Under the pieces are notes generated by a model, which did not search any database, was not told the origin of the DNA, and saw only the letters and a list, made by a program, of their open reading frames with translations. The translations under genes were made by a program, and so were the position numbers. A DNA stretch of 64,000 nt from an uncultured delta proteobacterium (GTDB taxonomy: Bacteria; Desulfobacterota; Desulfomonilia; UBA1062): contig CAVVYZ010000001.1 of NCBI GenBank assembly GCA_963752595.1, positions 288,001 through 352,000 on the forward strand, given 5' to 3'. Each line of letters starts with the position of its first letter. Position 1 is the first letter of the stretch. Shown here in pieces: positions 200 through 27,790 of the stretch.

Positions 200-359
200 G
201 TTCAAAGCTTGAATCAGACGCGATCCCCCTTAATGCTTTGCATAAGGGGGATCGCATTCTCTTTTTTCTCAATCCCATCGAGGAAGAGAATACAGGCGGC
301 GAGGATCTCCCTCGGTACAGCATATTTATCGGAAAGCGTGATACTATCCTGCAGAAGGC

Positions 360-2033
360 CTATCCGGAATCGCCGTTCAGGTAGAGCTTGATCTTTCTGC
401 GGATGGACTCGGGGAGCTTGATGCCGATGGCATTCAGCCGCGACTCGTACTTTCTTAACGACCTCATGTGCGGGGAGGTGGTGGAGAAGATCTTGAGATA
501 GGACTGGATGCTCCCCTCCAGCTCCTTCCGGAAGAGCCATATCCTGGTTGAGCAGGTCCTCGATCGGGGCGATGACCCGGTAGTTGATGGGCCGGCACAT
601 CGAACGGTAGGCGACGAACCGCTGCGTCATTCGCACTCGTAGTTCTTCTCGACGATGCTCTTCTCCACCCGGTTAAGTTGATGCAGTCCATGATCTGGAA
701 ATCGAACCTGTCCCTCAGTATTCCTCTGATCATTTCCGCGGTCTTTATCAGGTACGGGCACTTGTCCATGTCGCCCTCGCAGTCGGTGTCGCATCGCAGG
801 TAGAGGACGAAATCGATATCCGAGCCCGGCTGGAGACGCCCCATGTTCACCGAGCCCATGACGTCCATGGCGATGTGGCCCTGGATCTTGTCCTCGAGCA
901 ACTGGGCCACCTCTTCGAGCATGTCGATCCGTGTCTTCGGTCTCCTGGGTCTGGAACATCCGGTAAAATTTCTTGATCTCGTTGAAGAGCTCGATCTCGG
1001 GGATATGGGAGTATTTTTCAACGGTGGTATCGTAATTCTCCCTTCTTCAGGGCCTTGTACCGCTCCTGGTCGATGATCTCCTCGATCCAGACATCGTTCT
1101 TTCGGGTAGTAATCGGCCACATCGTAGATCTGTCTTCGCAGATCTTCTTGAAGATGATCTTCTGGACTTCCCGGCCGTCGATATCGATCTGGTAGAAGAA
1201 GCCGCCCTCGGTGACCTCGCCGGTCGTTTGCGTGACTTCGCCGAAGTTCGAGGGGTTGAGGAAGAGGGTGTCGTCCAGGGGCTTGACCCCCCATGCATCA
1301 TGGGCATGGCCGGTCAGGCAGAGCATGACCGGGTTGTTGTCGCAGTATGTGCGCAGCGAGGGCGAGCCGAACGGGCCGCCGTAGGATGTCTTGTCGTTTA
1401 TGCCGTAGGCAGGCTGATGGGTAACGATGATATCGGGCTTTACCGCCCTGAAGAACCGGTACATCTCATTGTGCTTTTCATTGATGCCCATGCCGGCCTG
1501 GTAATTGACGATGTAGCGCTCCGGGATGCCCGCGGTCCAGACATCTGCGCCGCCGTACCCGCATATCCTGAGGCCCTCGAGTGGTACCAGTGGAGGTGCA
1601 GGTCGTAATCGTGCAGCGAGGTATACTTGAGGTCCATGTCGTAATTGCCCGGGCAGGCAGAAGACGTGGGATTTCGGCTTCATGAAGATGATGTTCTTCA
1701 GCACCTTGTACTTCTGCTGCATGACCCGGCGGGCGCGGATGGTGTAGCTGCTGGTACCTTGGTCCCATTTGTCTCGATCTCTTCCGAGACGTTCGGGTCT
1801 TCGAGGAGATCGTCAACGAAGTCTTCGATGAGCATGTGCTCTGTGCCCATCTTCCTGCGCAGCCCGTGGAAATACGACTGGATCTCGTGGTACCGGATCG
1901 AGGTCCCCATGTTGTAGAAGGGGATGTCGATGAGGTCTCCGGCGATGATATAAACGTCGGCCACGGTCTCGCAGAGGAGGTTCTTCACCTTCTCGAAATC
2001 GCCGTGGATATCGGTTGCATAGATAATCTTCAT
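360..2033 (-). CDS. Calcineurin-like metallophosphoesterase fused to a C-terminal Pol-beta-type nucleotidyltransferase domain (several frameshifts)
   Basis: ORF pieces join into one protein: TDIHGD, AGDLID, PG(N)YD, VTHQP, GHAH, NPS (metallophosphoesterase motifs), then MGSVNMG...GSDIDFVLY (GS..DxD NTase motif). Stop TAG at 360-362 by manual reconstruction. Confidence 0.75.
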
Positions 2034-2316
2034 TTTCTGCCGTATCGGTTTTTATCAGGGGGAAAATAAACCGGTATCCGGGTTTGCCGCATCGTGCCCG
2101 CCATTGTCTGCCGCTATCTTTCACATTACCGTTATCACAAAGAGAGCGGACAAACCAACCGGTTTCTCATAAGGCCCGGTGCCGGAGTCCTCCCATTCCT
2201 CTCGCGACTTTGCTTTGCGGGTGCCCAGGGGGAGAGGATACAGGAGAGGGGATAAAATAAACGGCTTTTTGATACCCCGCTGCTTGCGGCGGCGACCTTC
2301 GTCGCAGGGCAGACAG

Positions 2317-11178: not shown

Positions 11179-13834
11179 ATGGATATAGCATTAACAAGAC
11201 TATGGGCAAAGACGACTAGTAACAGTGATGCAGGGTGGCATCCCCTCATTCTTCATATGCTGGATGTGGCTGCCAGTGCGGACGCTATCCTGGCGCGTGA
11301 ACCGGAATCAACCCGCATAAGGATGGCAGCAATTTTGGGGATGGAGTGGGAGGATGCCCGAGCTTGGCTTTTGCTTGTAATAGCCTGCCATGATCTGGGG
11401 AAGGCCTGTCCGGGATTTCAATGCAAGTGGACAAATCATGACAGATCTGGATTCATGCCTCGAAGCCCGAATACCGAGATCAACCATGCCTTTGTGAGCC
11501 AGATCGCCCTTACAGAACTGTTGCAGGAGAGGGGCTGGCCGGATGAATTGGCGGAGTTGGTGGCCGATGCGGTGGGATGTCACCACGGGGAACGGGCTTC
11601 TCCGACAACACTTAACTATCTTGGAAGGCGATAGAGCGTGCCACTTGGCAAGGATGAATGGGCACAAGCGCGTCGAGGGCCTCTTTGAAGCGTTGCTGGA
11701 AGTTCTTAAACCTGTCCAGATTCCCGCCAAACAGACTCTTTCCGGCCCTGACTTCATGCTGCTGTCCGGGCTCACAAGCTTTGCCGACTGGATCGGCTCC
11801 AACGAAGATTGGTTTCCTTTCGGTACTCCGGAGGACTGCGAGGATCTTGCTGGGATGGTTCAATAAGCGCAGAGCCCATGCCGACCAAGCTCTGGATGCA
11901 ATCGGATGGGAACCCCGAACCCCGCTTTCCCCGGAGCCAAAGTCTTTCGAACAGGTTTTTGGCTTTGCTCCCCGTCCCTTGCAGCAGGCTGTTGCCGATG
12001 CTTTGGCTGATGTGAAGGAGCCTGCCATTCTGCTGGTGGAAGCTCCCATGGGCGAGGGCAAGACCGAGGCGGCCTTCTTCGCGCATCTGGAACTGCAGCG
12101 ACGTTTCGGGCACCGCGGCTTGTATGTGGCCTTGCCGACCAAAGCCACCGGAAATGCCATGTTCAAGCGAACCCTGAAATTCTTGCGCCACCAGGGAACG
12201 GATCGAAAGCTCGACCTGCAACTGTTGCACGGCGCGACACTCCTCAACGACACCTTCCAGAATCTGCGTCTTTCGGGCATCCACGATCCCGAAACAGGCG
12301 GTGAGATCCGCGCGGGAGAATGGTTCACCCACAAAAAACGGGCGCTCCTCTCGGAATACGGCGTGGGAACGGTGGACCAGGCGCTCCTGCCCATTCTGCC
12401 TGTGCGGCACAACTTCGTGCGTCTGTGGGGTCTTGCGAACCGTGTGGTGGTCTTCGACGAGATCCATGCATACGATGCCTATACGGGTACGCTCCTGGTT
12501 CACCTGCTGCGCTGGCTTCTGGCACTGGGCTCGTCGGTGGTGCTTCTCTCGGCAACCCTGCCGCCTTCTATTCGACGCAAGTTGGCAGGAGTGGTGGATG
12601 CCGACTTGCCGGAACAAGAGAAGGAATATCCCCGCCTTTCCGTCTTCCGCCCGGGCGCGGTGGAACAAATACATTTCGAGGCCGATCCTGCGCGCCGCCG
12701 GACTCTGCGACTACTAGGGATTCCACCGGACCTGCCGAGCATGCGCTCTGCTCTGGAGGAGCATCTTGCCAATGGTGGAATGGGGCTGGCGCTTGTCAAT
12801 ACGGTGCAGCGAGCCCAGGATCTTTACCGGCTTTTCCCCGAGGGTGAGCACTGGAGCGCGAAGGCCAGCGTGTCGGCAAACGACTGTCCGATGGGACGGA
12901 AGTGTTTCTCTTCCACGCCCGCTTTCCGGCTGATCGACGGCAGAAGCGCGAGGATCATGCCTTGGAGACCTTCGGGCGAAGGCGGAATCAGGACAGGACG
13001 AAAAATCCTCATTGCCACCCAGGTGGCGGAACAGAGCCTTGATCTGGACTTCGACCTGATCGCAACTGACCTCGCGCCTATTGACCTTGTGCTTCAGCGA
13101 GCGGGGCGCTTGTGGCGGCATGCACGGGACTCCAGGCCTGTTTCCGAACCGATCCTCCTGGTAGCGGGACTTGCTGGCGACGAGCCGCCATCATTCGGAA
13201 AGCCACTCTGGTGGGGAGCGGTGTATCGCGAAGATATTCTGTTGCGCACATGGTGTCTTCTTACGAGAGCGACAGAGACACTTGACGCTGCCGGACGAAA
13301 TCGATACCTTGGTGCAAGCGGTTTACGAAGAGCAGGTGGACGTGCCGGAAAACCTGCAGGAGAGACTGGACAAAGCCTTGTTGGAAGGGGAAGGGGAAGA
13401 CATTGCCAAACATGGGCAGGCAAACCAGGCGATAATTGGCTTTCCCGACGATGCATCATGGAACCAGCCGGAGAGATTCGTTCTTTACGACGAAGATGAA
13501 CCTGGCGTGCATCGAACCCTCATGGCCCAGACCAGGCTTGGCGAAGATCGATCGTAGCTATTCCGTTATTTCCGGAAGACGGATTCCGTCCGGAAGCGAC
13601 GCCGGATTTCGCCCAGGCCAAACAGTGGTTCCTGCGGGCCATGAGCCTTTCGCGCAAGGGCGTGGTCAAGAAACTGCAAGGCGCTGGGGGTGCCGGAAGG
13701 CTGGAAGAAATCACCGCTCTTGCGCAATTGCTTCCCGCTGGTGCTGGATGCAGCAGGATCGCTGGACCGAGGATGCAACGGTGCGACTGGATGACGATCT
13801 GGGGCTGGTGTACGAGACAAAGGAGGCCGAATGA
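11179..13834 (+). CDS. cas3: Cas3 HD-nuclease/helicase (several frameshifts)
   Basis: LWAK, HMLDVA, CHDLGK, CHHG, ADWIGS, APMGEGKTEAA, DEIHAYD, SATL, TQVAEQSLDLD, QRAGRLWRH across successive frames. Confidence 0.95.
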
Positions 13835-15451
13835 GCCGATTCAACCTGATTGACGAGAAATGGATCCCGGTGCGGTTCCCTGATGGAACCCGCGACGAAC
13901 TGGGCATCCGCGACACCCTGCTGCGATCGAGGGAGATCGCGGCTATCGAGGACCCGTCCCCGCTGGTGGTGGCTGCCTTGCACCGCTTTCTGCTTGCGGT
14001 CCTGTACCGCGCCTTGGAAGGACCGACCGACATCGATCAGGCCAAGGCACTGTTCAAGGAGGGGATCCAGGCGAAAAAATCACAGCCTACCTGGAAAAGT
14101 GGCGGGATCGGTTCTGGCTGTTCGATGAGAAGTATCCGTTTGGGCAGATTCCCACATTCGAGCCGAAGACCTGGAGAGCTTGGACGTTCTTCGCTGCCGA
14201 GCATAATGCCGACAATGCCAAGGTTCTCTTCGATCACGTGGATGTGACAGAATCTGGTAGTATCAGCTATGCTGCCGCCGCTCGGTGGATGCTGGCCACC
14301 CAGACATTTGCCGTCTCTTCGGGCAAAAGCGAAATCTCTCATACTGGTACAGCTCCATCGGCAGGCTCTGTAATGGTCATTCCTATTGGGTTGAATCTTC
14401 AGGATACACTTTTTTTCTGCCTTGTTCCCCAAAATCGAGAAGTAATGCAAGCTGATATTCCATTGTGGGAAAGAAATCCTGAATCTGTTGAGTACCTGAA
14501 AGCCCCGAATAAAGTGTTAGACAAAAAAACTGGGAAGCAAAAAGATCGAACTGTAGAGAGGGTTTCTAATGGAATTGTAGACCTTTATACATGGAGGACC
14601 CGCTCGATTCTTTTCAAGGAATCACCATCTGGCGATGTTTCCGAGTTGGCTTTTGCTTCTGGTGTTGGGTACAAGGAATCGATGGATATTGACCCAATGC
14701 TCGGGTACCAATTAGGGAAATTACAGATAAAGAAACAAAAGAAAAGTTGAAAAAAAGAGTTACTATTCACCTTGAAGAAAGGGGATTTTGGCGAGATTTT
14801 GATTCCCTGCTCCCCGATGATGATCACCTCGCACCGCAGGTCATTGAACATGCTGTAGCATTACCGGTTGGATCGCAAGAGATTGCCCAGAGCTGTGATG
14901 GTTCTTGGTCAAAGGTATTACCCACCTCGACCAAATATCGAGTACTGGCGAAAGGAACACTTTGCCCTTCCTGAAGCAATGTCGGGGGATCGATATATCC
15001 GTCATGATATTCGAGACATTTTGATAGAGGCCGAGAAAGCTGGAAATCTTTGTGGAATGGTGAAGATGGAATTAAGGCATGCCTTTGTAGTAGTGTAGGG
15101 ATCTTTGCAAATAACTCTGAGTCGGGGTGAACGCGAGCCTGCTGGCAAGGATATTAAAAGCTTTGTCGATCAGTAATGCCGGTTCACTTGGTACTGGTCC
15201 ACCTGGAATCCCGCTTTCACGAAATCCTGCGTGAGTACACCCTTGACCGGGATTCTGAGATATCCGCTGCAGTGGCTGAAGTCTGTCCGGGAAACTTTGA
15301 GAGCCGCATGGGAGCAGCATCGTGCTTCTGTCTCCACGGGTGATGCCTGGGCTATCCGTGCACTTGTGAAAGCTGAAGGGCCAGTACTGGCAAATTGAAG
15401 GAACTGAACGATGAGATTCAAAAACTCGAACCGCAGAAGGAGGACGCATGA
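13831..15451 (+). CDS. cas8e: Type I-E Cascade large subunit Cas8e/Cse1 (frameshifted)
   Basis: FNLIDEKWIPV N-terminus, AAARWML, DLYTWRTR, FWRDFDSLL; position after cas3. Confidence 0.9.
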
Positions 15452-15964
15452 ACGGATTCATCGAATGGCTGGAAGACCTGAATGAGAAAGACACCAAGGT
15501 GAGGGCGGTGCTGCGACGAAGCCTCGCCTTTGATCCGGAGCATTCGTACCCGCTTACCCTTATGTCGAACCCTTCGTGAAGGATGAGGATAATCCTGGCG
15601 GAGGGAGATGTTCTATCTGGTGGCCGGTCTCTGGGCAGCACATTGGCGAGAGGCCGATCGGAGTGAACCGATATCACTCGGGAAGGCGTGTGCAGCTTCA
15701 TCAGAATGGCAAGCGGTTCAACGAGCACCGAACGCCGCTTCATCACCCTGCTGGATGCTGATCCTGACAGTTGCCACACCGTCTGCGCCAGATGATTGCC
15801 CTTCTCAAAGAGCAAGCCATTGATTTCGAAGACCTGTTGAAGGGGCTTCTGTACTGGAACGACGACCAGAAGCGCACCCAGAACGCTGGGCTCGCGACTT
15901 CTACCGAAATCTAGAACAATGAAACAGAAATCGAATCCATAACCGATAAGGAGATCACAAATGA
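15448..15964 (+). CDS. cas11: Cas11/Cse2 small subunit (frameshifted)
   Basis: [38 protein letters not shown] pieces from manual reading; operon position. Confidence 0.8.
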
Positions 15965-17126
15965 AGACAATAATCGAAATTCATGCCTTGCAGAACTTTG
16001 CCCCATCAAACCTGAACCGAGATGACACCGGTGCCCCCAAAGATGCCTTATTTGGTGGCACCCGCCGCGCCCGTGTGTCCAGCCAGTGCCTCAAACGTTC
16101 GGTGCGGCAGTATTTCAAAGATAGTAGAACAAAAGATATGGGTAGCTGATACGAACCAAGCGTATCGTTGATGCTCTGAAGGAACGACTCACGCTGAAGT
16201 TAAAAGACCAGAAGGGACTTCACTGAAGACAATCTGGTGAAGATAATTGAAACCGCTATGTCAAGCCTTGGCGAGCAACAAGAAGGTTACGGTGAAAGGA
16301 AGAGGAAGAGCGAGTATCTCCTGTTCTTGAGCACGCGAAATTCGAAATAGAATTCTCTGCAGAAAGTGGGATCATCACCGCATTCTTATGCTGACTCTGT
16401 CTCAAAGGAAAAAACCGTCAGACCAAGTATAAAGCAGGCTGCAAGATGCCGATCCTGAATTAAAGAAAGCACTGAAAAGTCTTCAACGGTGGAAAGCCGT
16501 TGATGTTGCACTGTTCGGGCGAATGCTGGCCGATATGCCCGAGAAGAACCAGAACGCTGCCTGCCAGGTTGCTCATGCCATTTCGACCCATTCTGTTGAA
16601 CGGGAATTCGACTTCTACACTGCCGTGGACGACCTCAAGCCCGAGGACACCGCCGGTGCTGACATGATGGGTACGGTGGAGTTCAATTCGGCCTGTTTCT
16701 ACCGCTATGCCGTGGTGGACTGGGAAAAACTTGTGGCAAATCTCCAGAATGACAAGGAACTGGCGACCAAGGGACTGCGGGCTTTCCTGGAAGGTTTCGT
16801 GGTGGCCGAACCCACCGGCAAGCAGAACACCTTTGCGGCCCACAATCCACCGGAGTTTGTTGCGGTTTCGGTGCGCCGCAATACCGCACCCCGCAACCTG
16901 GCCAATGCTTTTGAGACTGCCGTCCGCGTGAAAAAGGATGAGTCGCTGACCAGAAAGTCGGCAGAGGAGCTTGCCAAGAAGGCCAAGGCGCTGCAGGCTG
17001 CTTTTGGCGGTGAGGAGAAGACATTCGTTCTCAATCTCGTTGAGGCGAAGTTGAGATGGATTGGGAACGGACGTGGCCACTCTGAAAGATCTTCTCGACA
17101 AGGCCCTTTTGGCCGTACAGGAGTGA
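15961..17126 (+). CDS. cas7: Cas7/Cse4 backbone subunit (middle section garbled)
   Basis: [62 protein letters not shown]. Confidence 0.95.
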
Positions 17127-18492
<1,366 letters not shown>

Positions 18493-18566
18493 GAAAGCTC
18501 CGGCATCGATCCAGCGATAAACAATGTCAGCTTCTTATGCTGGTAAGGCGAGTATGAGGTGTAAAT

Positions 18567-19406
18567 ATGGAATCGAGACTTGTTGTTTTTAATGATAAAA
18601 AGATAAGGCGCATCCTTCTGGAAAATGTATGGTATTTTGCCGTGGTTGATGTAGTCGCAGCATTGACTGATAGCGATAAGCCACGAGACTATTGGTATCG
18701 TCTAAAAAAACGGGAACTGGAATCAAGTGGAGTTCAGCTGTCGACATATTGTCGACAACTCAAGCTTGAGTCAACCGACGGAAAGAGATACATTACCGAA
18801 GTTGCCAATACCGAAGGCATTTTTCGCATCATCCAGTCTATCCCGTCTCCAAAGGCCGAACCATTCAAACGTTGGTTGGCAAAGGTCGGCTATGATCGGA
18901 TTCAGGAGATCGAAGATCCTGAACTCGCAACGCAGAGGACCAGAGAATTATACAAGGCCAAGGGTTATTCGGAAGAGTGGATCGAAAAGCGGATGCGAGG
19001 AATCACCATTCGCGCAGAGCTCACCGACGAATGGAAAGGCCGCGGTGTAAAGAAAGAACCTGAGTATGCAATCTTGACAGCCGAAATATCCAAGGCAGCA
19101 TTTGGTCTTACCCCTGCAGAATACAAACAATTGAAGGGGCTGGAACGTGAAAATCTCCGCGACCATATGACCGACCTCGAATTGATTTTCTCAATGTTGA
19201 GCGAAGCTGCAACTACGGAGATAACCAGAAAACAGAATGCCCAGGGATATGACCAGAACAAGGATGCGGCACACAAAGGCGGTCGGATTGCAGGCGGAGC
19301 ACGGGAGAAGCTGGAGGCGGAAACCGGCTCGCAGATCGTTTCATCTGAAAACTATCTTGCAGAGCCTGAGAGTGTAAAACGCTTGGGAAGAAGAAAAAAA
19401 CAATGA
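18567..19406 (+). CDS. Bro-N domain DNA-binding protein inserted in the cas operon
   Basis: IRR..WYFAVVDVV, IIQSIPSPKAEPFKRWLA, NLRDHMTDLEL; intact 279-aa ORF. Confidence 0.85.
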   Translation: MESRLVVFNDKKIRRILLENVWYFAVVDVVAALTDSDKPRDYWYRLKKRELESSGVQLSTYCRQLKLESTDGKRYITEVANTEGIFRIIQSIPSPKAEPFKRWLAKVGYDRIQEIEDPELATQRTRELYKAKGYSEEWIEKRMRGITIRAELTDEWKGRGVKKEPEYAILTAEISKAAFGLTPAEYKQLKGLERENLRDHMTDLELIFSMLSEAATTEITRKQNAQGYDQNKDAAHKGGRIAGGAREKLEAETGSQIVSSENYLAEPESVKRLGRRKKQ

Positions 19407-19440
19407 ATAATCGAGCGTGTTTTTTATATCAGGTGCAACA

Positions 19441-20644
<1,204 letters not shown>

Positions 20645-20715
20645 GTATGAAGGCGTGTTTCGGTAGAATTTTGATCATTGAAAATTGATAGTGAATTTAA
20701 CGGAATACAGGAAGT
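20645..20715 (+). promoter_or_regulatory. CRISPR leader
   Basis: AT-rich stretch between cas2 and repeat 1, containing a GGTAGA motif like that of other I-E leaders. Confidence 0.75.
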
Positions 20716-23700
20716 GTGTTCCCCACACACGTGGGGATGAACCGATTCACTCAGCGTTTCATGCGCACTCACCAATACGTGTTCCCCACACACGTGGGGA
20801 TGAACCGATCGATTTTCATTGACAACTCATCCGGCATTACGTGTTCCCCACACACGTGGGGATGAACCGGGCATGGGCATAGGCGATAATCGTTAAGATC
20901 AAGTGTTCCCCACACACGTGGGGATGAACCGGACGACCATTTTCTGACGAGCCGCAAGATCGTTGTGTTCCCCACACACGTGGGGATGAACCGGTGGCAG
21001 AATACGGCCAAGCGTGCGATGTCAGGTGTTCCCCACACACGTGGGGATGAACCGTGCTGTGGATAGCAGCCATGACGATTGACAGTCCGTGTTCCCCACA
21101 CACGTGGGGATGAACCGAATTATGGCTGTACAAGATGGCGCAATCGACCGTGTTCCCCACACACGTGGGGATGAACCGGGGATTGACGGACTTAATCAGC
21201 GCAGTACTGGCGTGTTCCCCACACACGTGGGGATGAACCGGCCAGTGGGGTCATGGCGATCATCTGGACGTTCGTGTTCCCCACACACGTGGGGATGAAC
21301 CGCTCAAACTGCAATGGATTGAGTGCTGGGTCGAGCAGTGTTCCCCACACACGTGGGGATGAACCGAGTAACGGCACTTGCAGCTCAGCATACAGCGAGT
21401 GTTCCCCACACACGTGGGGATGAACCGTCTCGTCAACGATCGCCGAGAGTGCGGCGGTCCGGTGTTCCCCACACACGTGGGGATGAACCGTGATCGACGG
21501 CTTCGAGCAATCCTGTCAACCAGTGTTCCCCACACACGTGGGGATGAACCGAACCGTCACTAATCTGTCACAAGCTATGTATCCAGTGTTCCCCACACAC
21601 GTGGGGATGAACCGATGCAGGGCGGCCGCTTGATCTCGAACAGGCAGGTGTTCCCCACACACGTGGGGATGAACCGACCATCAGCTCGACAGAGCAGGAC
21701 GGATACAGGTGTTCCCCACACACGTGGGGATGAACCGTAGGTCAATGTATGCGCTACGTGTCATCGATTCGTGTTCCCCACACACGTGGGGATGAACCGT
21801 AGTTCGACATCTGCCTGAGTAGTCGCGACTATGGTGTTCCCCACACACGTGGGGATGAACCGGATCGGCGAGCGGATGGCGACGCCGGGCAACAGTGTTC
21901 CCCACACACGTGGGGATGAACCGTCGCGAATGTATGGCGAAGCTCCAAGCGTAATCGTGTTCCCCACACACGTGGGGATGAACCGGCATTTCGACTTGAG
22001 CATATGGGCTGTGATCCAGTGTTCCCCACACACGTGGGGATGAACCGCATCAGCGTGCATCGTACGGGCAAGAGCACGATGATATTCCCCACACACGTGG
22101 GGATGAACCGCGGCAGGACGTAGCAGATCGCAGACTGTATGAGTATTCCCCACACACGTGGGGATGAACCGGCTGAGTCAGCCTACGAGTTCAGATGATT
22201 GATGCGTGTTCCCCACACACGTGGGGATGAACCGTCCAGTGCGATGACTCTGATCGCACAGTCCATGAGTATTCCCCACACACGTGGGGATGAACCGTAC
22301 ATACGCTGTTCAAATGCATCCGCGCACGGTACAGTGTTCCCCACACACGTGGGGATGAACCGGTGACTGCCAGATGATGTCGCTCTACGCATGTCAAGTG
22401 TTCCCCACACACGTGGGGATGAACCGCTATGACGCCAGTGTCGCAGCGATCGACAGCGTCACGTGTTCCCCACACACGTGGGGATGAACCGACGCTGGTT
22501 CATGCCGATGCTTCATCATGACGTATTCCCCACACACGTGGGGATGAACCGCACGATGCGACACGTCGAGCATGCACTGGGCCACGTGTTCCCCACACAC
22601 GTGGGGATGAACCGGTACGATTGTTTCAGCCTGCGCATGAACCTGCAGCGTATTCCCCACACACGTGGGGATGAACCGGCTATGGCAAATGCCAAGGCTG
22701 ATCGCGCGTGAGTGTTCCCCACACACGTGGGGATGAACCGAGCTCGGTCAGCTGGCACTGTCATGACCGACGCGTATTCCCCACACACGTGGGGATGAAC
22801 CGTGATGCCGATCACTGCACCTGCGCAGTCACCGATGTGTTCCCCACACACGTGGGGATGAACCGCTATGCAACGATGCGCACAGTGCAGCCAGGCGTGT
22901 GTTCCCCACACACGTGGGGATGAACCGTTAGCAGACTGCAGATCAGCGACGATCAAAGTGAAGTGTTCCCCACACACGTGGGGATGAACCGATCGCGATG
23001 CAGATGAGACGATGGCAGGCGAATGCAGTATTCCCCACACACGTGGGGATGAACCGATCATCAAGCTCGAAGTCGCATGATGATGCATGCAGTATTCCCC
23101 ACACACGTGGGGATGAACCGGATCGTATGCATTGTGAGCGCGATGTCACGGTATGTATTCCCCACACACGTGGGGATGAACCGCGTAGCAATGCGCTGAA
23201 TGTGCATTCGGCTGCAGTATTCCCCACACACGTGGGGATGAACCGTACTGGCCATTGGCGATTCCGCGCTTCCGAACAGTATTCCCCACACACGTGGGGA
23301 TGAACCGCGGCAAGATTGCCCGACGCGCGAGCACATCGATGGTATTCCCCACACACGTGGGGATGAACCGCGTCAGATGGCAAACATGGCCTGTCCTGAG
23401 GAGCAGTGTTCCCCACACACGTGGGGATGAACCGACATCAGATGACACAAGCCGATCCGCCATGCACGTATTCCCCACACACGTGGGGATGAACCGAGCC
23501 AGTCTGGAGAGCACAGACATCGACAACGGAGTGTTCCCCACACACGTGGGGATGAACCGATATCGAGGCAGTGGCGAATACGGCGATGTCGAGTGTTCCC
23601 CACACACGTGGGGATGAACCGGCTGGAGATGATCCGGATCGTCGGAGCCGCAGGTGTGTTCCCCACACACGTGGGGATGAACCGTGCAGATCGCTGACGG

Positions 23701-26033
23701 TGGCATACGGATGACTGCAGTGTTCCCCACACACGTGGGGATGAACCGCGTGCCGGAGCATACCATGCGGAATAGGCGATGCGTGTTCCCCACACACGTG
23801 GGGATGAACCGCAACGATCGGACCACGAATCAGCGATGGAACAGTGTTCCCCACACACGTGGGGATGAACCGGTCAGCGGCCTGCGAGGCCAGCGAATGC
23901 AGCTGATGTGTTCCCCACACACGTGGGGATGAACCGCACGTTCGAGCACCCGAGTGCCGGCAGAACACGTGTTCCCCACACACGTGGGGATGAACCGCCT
24001 GCCAGAATGGATGAGTATCGACAACAGTCGAGTGTTCCCCACACACGTGGGGATGAACCGGCACGCGGCGATGCAGCCGCTGATGGACATCGAAGTGTTC
24101 CCCACACACGTGGGGATGAACCGAATCAGGCGTGGCAACTGTCATCAAGCGGTACAGCGTGTTCCCCACACACGTGGGGATGAACCGTCCATTACCGGAC
24201 GTCATACCAGGATCACGCAGAGTGTTCCCCACACACGTGGGGATGAACCGACGCTGGAAGCCGTGCGAGTCACTTCTGGAAGTGTTCCCCACACACGTGG
24301 GGATGAACCGATGTATGCTGGAATCGAGCACGAGCGCTGAATACGTGTTCCCCACACACGTGGGGATGAACCGGACTGATGCCTACAGGACAGCACAGCG
24401 TATCATGGTGTTCCCCACACACGTGGGGATGAACCGTGTCGCGACATATCGCCACGCTCGCAGCTATACGTGTTCCCCACACACGTGGGGATGAACCGGT
24501 CGATCGTGGCGATCGCAGCCATGTCTGATCGTGTTCCCCACACACGTGGGGATGAACCGATAGAATCGACACGGCAGTCTGATCCGCTATGGAGTGTTCC
24601 CCACACACGTGGGGATGAACCGGCGATATCAATACATGCAGTGCCGATGAGTACCGTGTTCCCCACACACGTGGGGATGAACCGCGCGGATGATCAGCTC
24701 ATGAGCATGCGGATGCACGTGTTCCCCACACACGTGGGGATGAACCGGCAATGCTTGTCGAGTTCAGCGGCATCTGGTTCGGTGTTCCCCACACACGTGG
24801 GGATGAACCGGTGATCTTGTCATGTATCGATGCCAGCTCGTGCGAGTGTTCCCCACACACGTGGGGATGAACCGATCGAGCACGAATCAGGCGCATGAGC
24901 GAAGCATCGTGTTCCCCACACACGTGGGGATGAACCGGATCGACAGGCTGTATGACGACGATGAGCAAGCGTGTTCCCCACACACGTGGGGATGAACCGG
25001 ATAGCATCAGCGACTCGCCGTCAATTGTCTGATGTGTTCCCCACACACGTGGGGATGAACCGACTATCATGACGTACTGTACGAGTGCATCAGTGTGTGT
25101 TCCCCACACACGTGGGGATGAACCGTCGATGTAATAGATGCCGACTGCGTCATCAGTGTGTTCCCCACACACGTGGGGATGAACCGGTAGATCGTACCGG
25201 TCCCGATGACTGCTCGTCAGTGTTCCCCACACACGTGGGGATGAACCGAAAATGGGCATGCTCAAGATAAGACACAGGGGAGTGTTCCCCACACACGTGG
25301 GGATGAACCGGCATTCGCGCTGATCCGGCAGCCTGCACAGATGTGTTCCCCACACACGTGGGGATGAACCGGTATTCAACGACAACATGACCCATGGCGA
25401 ATGTGTTCCCCACACACGTGGGGATGAACCGCGAGGGACATATGCGCAGGTTACGTATCAGGATAGTGTTCCCCACACACGTGGGGATGAACCGGCTGCG
25501 TTGCATCGGGACGGTCTGCCAGCTGACGTGTTCCCCACACACGTGGGGATGAACCGGCCTGTCACCGGCATAGCGCAGCGGCAACCCAGTGTGTTCCCCA
25601 CACACGTGGGGATGAACCGATGCACGCGATACGGCAGGCACAGCCCAGATCGTGTTCCCCACACACGTGGGGATGAACCGGATATAGCCGATCTTATAAG
25701 CAATCGCAACGGAGTGTTCCCCACACACGTGGGGATGAACCGCCGGCGATGCGGATCGCCGTGCTGCCGCCGCTGTCGGTGTTCCCCACACACGTGGGGA
25801 TGAACCGCGGGACAGATCGGTTATATATGTTGGCAAGTGTTCCCCACACACGTGGGGATGAACCGCCTCGATCTAGACCTGCAGGCCGTACCTATCGTGT
25901 TCCCCACACACGTGGGGATGAACCGGACACGCTGAGGGCTGGCCTCCATATTGTATCAGTGTTCCCCACACACGTGGGGATGAACCGGTTGCATATAGCC
26001 TGTCGGCTGATATTATACGATTCAATCCATCCA

Positions 26034-26062
26034 TTGACATAGGGGAGGTACAGTAATATGAT
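26034..26062 (+). promoter_or_regulatory. Putative sigma70 promoter inside the giant spacer
   Basis: TTGACA (26034-26039), 17 bp, TATGAT (26057-26062); RBS GGGAGG at 26079-26084 before ATG 26091. Confidence 0.7.
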
Positions 26063-26090
26063 AACCCTTTCATATATCGGGAGGTTTCTT

Positions 26091-27578
26091 ATGAAGAGGG
26101 TTGTCATGCCGTCTCTGATGGTGTGCGTCGTTTTCACGGCCTGCTATGCGGGATGGCTTTCAGGGTACAGTAGACGAGCCAAGATAGAAGCGTCCAATGA
26201 GACTGCTCTTGCCGATCAGGTGATGCAGTTGGATATGTATTACAATGTTCCCCTGATTGAGGGTGATGGGATATTGAGAAGAAATGCGATACCAACATTC
26301 AAATATTCAGGCACTCACAGTAGAACTTACTTCGGCTTCTATGATACGAACGCCACCATTAAAATACGTTACTTTGATAATACAACAAAGGCACTCAGCG
26401 CCGCAACAACGATTGTATCAAGTTGGGGCAGCGGGGATGATCATTCTGTACCGTCTGTAATCGTCTTGCAGCGACAAACGGGCGATTACGCAAGTCACAA
26501 TGGTAAAGTCCTTGTGGCTGCTGGTGAGCATGGAACCGTATTAAATGGAAGGGTGATGGGGTGGAGGTCATCTAGCGCGGAGTCGATTTCCTCTTTTGAG
26601 ACTGGAGTCAGCATAGAGGACAAGAGTGGGACGTACACGTTCCTTGTTGAAGATAGCGCCGGTAAAATATATCTATTCTATCGTCTTACAAGTTTTCCTA
26701 GTGTGAATCACTTTTCTTGGTATTATAAGACGTCTACGGATGCTGGCACAACATGGAGTTCAAGAACCCTGCTATGGGATGCAGGAGATGCTCATTCGTA
26801 TATCATGGTCTACCCGACTAATGGAGGCGAGGATATACATCTCGCTTTCAATGCAGCTTTTCACGGCGAGCCATATGTCGGGTACAGCAGATATAGAGAC
26901 ATATATTATGCAAGATATGATGTATCCGGGGCAAAGTGGTACAAGGCCGACGGAACCACTGAAATAGCCCTGCCGATGGACACATCCACCGCAGGGAGTA
27001 TTCCCGATGTTGTTCATACCACCGCAGCGACCCATTGGGAATTTCTAGGTGAAGTAAAGGTCATCGACGGATCGCCATACATACTGTCATTTGATGAGGT
27101 TCCGACAGATAACTACCCGTCATCATACGTGCATAGCGATGGGAATGTGTTTTACCACTACTATTCTGGCGGAACGTGGCATACCGAAACAGTTTGTGGC
27201 ACCGGACGATTCGGAACATACAACTATCAGGCCGGGGCAACACTCGACGCCTGGGATGAAAATGTAATCTATGCCTGTGTACCCGATGGAAGTGGTCTTA
27301 CCCAAATGCAGAAATGGGAGAAGGATGGGACATGGGGTAAGACAGAAGATATCACTCAGGCTAGTTCCGGCGATCATTTCTGGCCCTCCTTTGTAAATGG
27401 AGCATCATCCACAGACCTCTTCAAAGTCCTTTGGTGCTACACCGAGAATTACACCATGTATGATGATGGACATTGGACATCATCATTAATGGCCTATCCC
27501 GGCTATAACAATAGCTCAAACATAAAACTCAATAAGGATTCTCGAGTGTTCCCCACACACGTGGGGATGAACCGGTGA
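26091..27578 (+). CDS. Secreted BNR/Asp-box beta-propeller protein (BNR_4-like) embedded in the array; C-terminus supplied by the repeat
   Basis: Signal peptide MKRVV...ACYA; DDHSVPS, GKIYLFYR, STDAGTTWS (Asp-box); ends ...[15 protein letters not shown]. Alternative start at 26058. Confidence 0.75.
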   Translation: MKRVVMPSLMVCVVFTACYAGWLSGYSRRAKIEASNETALADQVMQLDMYYNVPLIEGDGILRRNAIPTFKYSGTHSRTYFGFYDTNATIKIRYFDNTTKALSAATTIVSSWGSGDDHSVPSVIVLQRQTGDYASHNGKVLVAAGEHGTVLNGRVMGWRSSSAESISSFETGVSIEDKSGTYTFLVEDSAGKIYLFYRLTSFPSVNHFSWYYKTSTDAGTTWSSRTLLWDAGDAHSYIMVYPTNGGEDIHLAFNAAFHGEPYVGYSRYRDIYYARYDVSGAKWYKADGTTEIALPMDTSTAGSIPDVVHTTAATHWEFLGEVKVIDGSPYILSFDEVPTDNYPSSYVHSDGNVFYHYYSGGTWHTETVCGTGRFGTYNYQAGATLDAWDENVIYACVPDGSGLTQMQKWEKDGTWGKTEDITQASSGDHFWPSFVNGASSTDLFKVLWCYTENYTMYDDGHWTSSLMAYPGYNNSSNIKLNKDSRVFPTHVGMNR

Positions 27579-27790
27579 GTGGTACGGCAAGCACCATGAG
27601 GGCATAGTGTTCCCCACACACGTGGGGATGAACCGTACGGCTACCCGGCCATTGCCACGCACTTCCTGTGTTCCCCACACACGTGGGGATGAAACGAGAG
27701 ACCCAGATGCAAGATGGAAGAGTGAAAATGGAGAGAGCGCCCAAAGGGAGATACATGAAAGAGTTTCGCGAGGAATAGGAATAGCTCAAC

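Follow-up and report, generated by a model that had tools for sequence, protein, structure and literature searches.

Kilobase fragments of foreign DNA occupy the place of a spacer in some archaeal CRISPR arrays. SiL-E1 of Sulfolobus islandicus LAL14/1 consists of ~2 kb of pING1-like plasmid DNA between identical repeats, and that report leaves open whether faulty processing or spacer recombination produced it (PMC3718332). An 899-bp pNOB8-like fragment lies between two repeats of S. solfataricus locus F (PMC4390879). Units of at least 100 nt are also listed for arrays of E. coli, P. aeruginosa and S. thermophilus, type I-E included; 11 of the 14 long spacers in that list match transposase or integrase-core sequences, and the other three (394-564 nt) are uncharacterised there (PMC4524480). 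The origin of kilobase pseudo-spacers has been an open question since the 2013 description of SiL-E1. Type I-E has the best-defined ruler, 33 bp, which makes recurrent exceptions in this type informative. We analyzed a 64,000-nucleotide stretch of DNA from an uncultured delta proteobacterium (assembly GCA_963752595.1, contig CAVVYZ010000001.1, positions 288,001 to 352,000 of the forward strand), referred to as the window, in which a 1,558-bp insert carrying a truncated gene fills the slot of a single spacer in a type I-E array. The genome is denoted G000.

The insert resembles SiL-E1 in being a kilobase fragment of foreign DNA between identical repeats that is followed by normal units. SiL-E1 matches its source collinearly as far as the boundary, and homology in G000 is traced to the 3' repeat edge by protein comparison; SiL-E1 is archaeal, plasmid-derived and contains five open reading frames (ORFs), whereas the G000 insert lies in a bacterial type I-E array with a 32-nt ruler, is likely of phage origin and contains one truncated gene (PMC3718332). 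The S. solfataricus fragment is also archaeal and plasmid-derived, unlike the G000 insert, and its length is near a whole number of repeat-spacer units (PMC4390879), a feature it shares with three of the four inserts of the present set. Phage DNA is likewise found in an array in the case of S. pyogenes phage AP1.1, but there it is a whole prophage with an integrase and attL/attR hybrid sites, which the G000 insert lacks (bioRxiv 10.1101/2020.10.09.333658). Compared with canonical type I-E acquisition, the slot between duplicated full repeats, the foreign origin and the repeat-edge junction are the same; the length differs (1,558 nt against 32-33 nt, about 49 times normal), and in vitro data oppose direct integration of a long duplex. 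A literature search that left most subscription journals and bioRxiv supplements outside its coverage did not reveal any paper describing kilobase units of phage origin in arrays of type I-E. Given the archaeal precedents, the phenomenon is less new than a preliminary description of this DNA had assumed; the G000 insert is a type I-E form of a rarity that is known, though unexplained. The new element is a recurrent, trailer-biased set of oversized units in type I-E arrays.

The insert and its truncated gene

The features in and around the insert are as follows.
20716..27696, forward strand: CRISPR array, 88 repeats of 29 nt
25959..25987, forward strand: repeat 85, exact 29-nt consensus
25988..27545, forward strand: insert of 1,558 bp occupying the position of spacer 85; present once; GC 46.4%
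26034..26062, forward strand: candidate sigma-70-like promoter from a pattern search, 11/12 consensus matches, 17-nt spacing
26091..27578, forward strand: ORF of 495 aa (506 aa from an upstream ATG at 26058) with a hydrophobic N-terminus and a complete BNR_4 beta-propeller, truncated
27546..27574, forward strand: repeat 86, exact 29-nt consensus, its first base directly after the last conserved codon of the ORF
27575..27696, forward strand: two normal 32-nt spacers (86 and 87), repeat 87 and the degenerate terminal repeat 88

The insert is unit 85 of 87, and it is flanked by two complete repeats without any other target duplication. The cas genes and leader lie to the left of the array and the degenerate terminal repeat to the right, which places the insert near the old, trailer end. 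A domain scan of its one long ORF returned BNR_4 and BNR_2 matches only and no transposase or integrase. No repeat-like sequence was detected inside the insert at up to 11 mismatches, and there are no terminal inverted repeats; the sole end-to-end inverted match is a 7-mer located 6 and 38 nt inside the ends. The insert is present once in the genome. These results agree with the preliminary description, which had placed 1,558 bp between two perfect repeats toward the trailer and had seen no transposase, terminal inverted repeats or split repeat. It had also described the insert as looking more AT-rich than the host genes. The GC content is 46.4% compared to 53.0% for the genome, but 6.9% of 2,631 same-sized stretches of the genome are equally low (the insert is at about the 7th percentile), so GC content alone is weak evidence. 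GC at third codon positions is 0.47 compared to 0.52-0.86 in five genes of the window, and the host hexamer score is 0.006 compared to 0.035-0.09 in four core genes. By these two measures the insert differs from the core genes and resembles the cas island.

The ORF is preceded by a ribosome-binding site, and its frame crosses repeat 86, which encodes the last 10 residues, to reach a TGA at 27576-27578 in spacer 86. Homology to other proteins extends to the last codon before repeat 86 and ceases at the first base of the repeat. Of the 12 homologs in a 13-row alignment, 8 run beyond this point, share a conserved DF-D-RF motif past it and enter DUF2341, and the remaining four end earlier or diverge; some natural homologs terminate just past the propeller. 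The earlier observation that the ORF is cut at the repeat boundary is supported by this alignment. The closest homologs are 47-50% identical. An AlphaFold model of the protein (mean predicted local distance difference test score of 82) matches beta-propeller lyases and glycosidases, the best match being PL25 ulvan lyase (E = 1.7e-17, template modeling score 0.66, 16% identity); this match gives a fold assignment and not an activity. The candidate promoter is directed into the ORF and the last three repeats and is the best match among five sites, compared to 3.6 expected by chance. An imperfect palindrome at the start of the insert (window 25993-26040) and a divergent promoter-like site (26040-26012, 10/12 matches) suggest a phage-type regulatory region.

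The DNA of the insert has no match in 60 relatives, and its protein has no homolog in 121 other genomes of the host class. On these comparisons the insert DNA is foreign to the class. One homolog (38% identity) comes from an IMG/VR contig on which it lies upstream of genes for terminase and portal proteins, and propeller-only forms occur in four bacterial genomes. A phage origin is likely, though the homologs behind it are distant. Scans for a source with the insert protein gave one weak match in viral sequences and none in metagenomes, and a tblastn search of GenBank phages gave nothing close. Spacers 86 and 87 and the start of the insert have no exact match in viral contigs, and the G000 spacers have no convincing match in their own genome or in the homolog loci.

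Oversized units in related type I-E arrays

Related arrays were identified by repeat pattern, and the set comprises those with listed places, not every genome with a match. A parallel was defined as at least 200 bp of DNA, other than N-gaps and insertion sequences (IS), between perfect repeats. Parallels were found in 3 of 52 related segments and in none of 22 segments from another class, for a total of 3 of 74 outside G000; they measure 533-1,434 bp and show that repeat-flanked large inserts recur. In G232, 1,372 bp make up the last of 207 units in a 208-repeat array (L089:2303-3674, G232:C11). The 1,434-bp insert of G463 is second from the trailer (L172:3554-4987), and the 533-bp insert of G441 is sixth (L088:211-743). 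The G232 and G463 inserts are Mu-like head-gene DNA (gpF plus Com and gpF plus protease, respectively), and their ORFs are open at both repeat edges, meaning that the genes are cut at both ends. All other spacers in these two arrays are 32-33 nt. The three inserts are different sequences though they come from one family. The G232 segment is present in G476 (L137, G476:C460) at 79% identity, uninterrupted and with no repeats past either end, and the similarity of the G232 insert to homologous DNA reaches both repeat edges. A viral scan with the G232 gpF piece gave no close source.

All three parallels lie in the last six units of their arrays, a zone that accounts for 11% of units in the 41 arrays with a trailer (p about 0.001, post hoc, the cut-off having been chosen after looking). 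Five N-gaps and four units hiding an indel-bearing repeat were dropped from the first set. Also dropped were a 138-bp unit of G091 with a damaged left repeat, a 79-bp unit of G435 with a partial repeat, and units between variant repeats in G203 (208 and 858 bp) and G484 (277, 234, and 723 bp). The drops from the 22-segment set were one N-gap, two cas operons, two elements that we take to be IS-like, and one 425-bp variant-repeat unit.

The preliminary description had proposed that the array acts as a gene-capture site. Cas6e, from its known cleavage, would presumably sever the transcript within repeat 86, ahead of the stop codon. The G000 gene is truncated, and the two identifiable parallels are useless phage head-gene fragments. 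Gene capture is unsupported because of the expected cut before the stop and the state of these parallels.

Several side observations concern the long units. The lengths of 1,558, 1,372, and 1,434 bp are within 2 nt of 32+61n (+1, -2, and -1, respectively) and 533 bp is not; the fit was noticed post hoc and is absent from most of the variant-flanked long units. In G463, 60 bp just past the terminal repeat (G463:C8:3403-3463) match the same protease gene as the insert at 87%, a hint that one region of a phage was sampled more than once. The trailer flank of G232 (L089:1173-2300) contains an ORF that is open at the terminal repeat and extends 1.1 kb outward. Part of this stretch and the 533-bp G441 insert share 76% similarity, with no PHROG match. 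The 858-bp unit of G203 (L173:5822-6679) is at the trailer and contains two intact small genes, presumably for an antitoxin-like protein and a PemK/MazF-type toxin-like protein. G484:C91 (L175:3143-4495) has a mini-array in which five variant repeats enclose units of 277, 234, 32, and 723 bp, and the 723-bp unit contains an intergenic element that also lies upstream of Mu-like protease genes.

Origin of the insert

We consider it moderately probable that the insert is phage DNA that Cas1e-Cas2e integrated untrimmed while the array was still short, giving an oversized spacer. One free end of the long DNA would be joined to the leader-side edge of a repeat, the site of Cas1's first attack, and the other end would be joined at the far edge of the repeat, where the agent may be the second Cas1 site, another complex, or repair. 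Fill-in would duplicate the repeat, and 84 ordinary spacers would afterwards be added upstream. The outcome would be an adaptation accident preserved as a fossil and not a functioning captured gene. In its leader-side attack, Cas1 links a 3' end to the repeat's first base, and the exact 3' junction at repeat 86 has this form; arithmetically, a random cut within a 61-nt unit would strike a repeat edge about 1-3 times in 61. The half-site order of Cas1 attack is described in PMC10284694. In canonical type I-E acquisition an AAG protospacer adjacent motif (PAM) lies 5' of the source, and its G ends up as the final base of the repeat. The AAG PAM of this repeat family is confirmed once, by a G232 spacer on a G475 prophage. 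At the left junction of the G232 insert, the next codon of the homolog encodes Leu and is compatible with an NAG PAM, and PAM compatibility in the parallels is 1 of 2. The earlier proposal that foreign kilobase DNA was integrated in the manner of a spacer thus stands for the foreign origin, the spacer slot, and the exact 3' junction, and falls short for Cas1-Cas2 as the sole agent.

A number of points weigh against untrimmed integration. E. coli Cas1-Cas2 holds ~33 bp, and a 63-bp prespacer was not integrated in vitro (bioRxiv 10.1101/602623); full-site integration needed PAM trimming (PMC10284694). The left junction of the G463 insert is not PAM-compatible, with Asn or Asp next in 57%-identical homologs, and the 5' junction in G000 is placeable only within the first ~70 nt, the 5' end being non-coding. 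All three parallels come from one family (f19), and the 22 other-class segments gave none. The phage origin hangs on the one 38% homolog, the other homologs being in bacterial genomes. The junctions are known from the assembled consensus alone, the protein is on record from one contig, and errors of the long-read type occur in the cas genes and in the array right up to spacer 84. The intact frame of the insert is no proof of quality, with ~1.8 frameshifts expected at the cas-operon rate and P(0) about 0.16.

The trailer bias might arise because such pieces are acquired while arrays are young, or because a long insert silences the older spacers behind it and these are then lost. A broader proposal is offered tentatively and is on balance doubtful: type I-E Cas1-Cas2 may have a ruler-independent, low-frequency mode that fully inserts phage DNA of 0.5-1.6 kb between duplicated repeats, chiefly where the array is young or where a new host has trimming nucleases that do not match. 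Trailers would then keep gene-sized fossils of the first phages encountered; the G000 piece, with its candidate promoter and complete propeller domain, could drive transcription of the oldest spacers, and 32+61n could be a length rule.

Spacer-guided recombination would also account for an insert of this form, and we regard it as unlikely. Two co-oriented spacers from the same phage, with targets 1.5 kb apart, would recombine with their protospacers so that the intervening units are replaced. This gives exact repeat boundaries without the integration of long DNA, and the PAM-compatible left junction in G232 agrees with it; it was already proposed for SiL-E1 (PMC3718332), and recombination between spacers and phage is cited in bioRxiv 10.1101/2020.10.09.333658. 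The model predicts an internal AAG at -35..-33 from the right end, which is present in 0 of 4 inserts, and none has a G at -33. This test is only moderate evidence against recombination, because non-AAG spacers are common in naive adaptation and the AAG PAM has its single confirmation in the repeat family. A hybrid is possible, in which the left end recombined and Cas1 joined the right end. The junction sequences of type I-E inserts allow integration by Cas1 to be told apart from recombination between spacers, and the best test case is G232 with its 79% source homolog in G476. If it is true that Cas1e-Cas2e integrates kilobase DNA at a defined site, this would be relevant to tools for recording in DNA and for inserting it. 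Such fossils would escape array finders that split or drop long units.

An assembly artefact, in which a long-read contig of low coverage took in phage DNA of the same sample at the position of the array, is quite unlikely. G000 is a metagenome-assembled genome with 84% completeness and 6.8% contamination, and its error pattern identifies the array region as an unpolished long-read consensus. Spacers 1-84 are 29-36 nt long and homopolymer-depleted, and only 13 of 84 are exactly 32 nt, compared to 2,143 of 2,223 units in the arrays of relatives; spacers 81-84, next to the insert, are 36, 29, 31, and 33 nt. Adjacent-base identity in the leader-side spacers is 0.14 compared to 0.24-0.29 in eight related arrays. 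The cas1 gene has two single-base indels despite 93% identity to relatives, and the cas operon has at least 12 frame switches against them. Host genes left of the array (window 349-2167, G000:C1 283556-288174) have ~1 indel per 100 bp compared to G004; this indel-rich stretch starts 4.4 kb left of the window and extends to 2167, and the split ORFs at window 349-2167 are likely assembly errors and not pseudogenes. Error patches occur genome-wide, with at least 5 inferred frameshifts in 16% of 426 10-kb bins by a hexamer Viterbi method that is insensitive in cas genes. Against an artefact, two chimeric joins back into the same array would be required, at least one of them exact to the base, and the same anatomy is present in three other assemblies with regular 32-nt spacers. 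The right flank of the array shows few gaps in its alignment to G004. Homopolymer content is normal in the insert and its frame is intact, which by itself is not significant, and spacers 86 and 87 are both 32 nt (chance about 0.02 at the leader-side rate). The insert is real in the assembly and probably real in the cell.

The remaining explanations have far lower probabilities. It is very improbable that a prophage or integrative element entered the array with the repeat serving as attB and left the insert as a remnant after losing its interior. Integration into repeats has been published and the insert is phage-like, but there is no integrase, both repeats are full consensus copies and not hybrid sites, and the 3' remainder of the gene is absent from the left end. 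Homologs have no repeat-like sequence at the break, and the DNA homologous to the G232 insert has no repeat match at either end. Least probable, and largely refuted, are two arrays around a native gene and the insertion of an IS or mobile cassette. Arrays divided by cas operons or IS elements do occur in relatives, in 4 of the 22 segments. The G000 gene is truncated, single-copy and found in 0 of 121 class genomes, and no leader precedes repeat 86, all of which speaks against the native full-length gene between two arrays that the preliminary description had raised as a counter-explanation. An IS would bring a transposase, terminal repeats or a split spacer, none of which is present, and the IS in G857 splits a spacer in mid-array, unlike the anatomy in G000. 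IS insertion, att-site integration and a native gene were set aside as candidates, their defining features being absent.

Array and cas locus of the host

The features upstream of the array are as follows.
11179..20641, forward strand: type I-E cas operon by family matches, with cas3, cse1, cse2, cas7, cas5, cas6, a BRO-N gene, cas1e and cas2e
20642..20715, forward strand: AT-rich leader from cas2 to repeat 1, by sequence and by relatives with similar leaders

The locus contains cse1/cas8e, cas7e, cas5e, cas6e, cas1e, cas2e and cas3 beside an array of 29-nt palindromic repeats, which identifies it as type I-E. Most genes of the operon are disrupted by single-base indels, likely consensus errors, and owing to the frameshifts several of the cas family matches are fragments below the cut-off. 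G000 has no second array with this repeat. Directly past the terminal repeat is a 16-codon ORF (window 27728-27778) that resembles the start of an IS3-family OrfA; a search of the genome gave no further copy. A variant third base is present in 13 repeats among nos. 23-45 (window 22082-23497), mixed with consensus copies. The BRO-N domain gene between cas6 and cas1 (window 18567-19403) is 73-75% identical to genes in the same place in G019 and G034.

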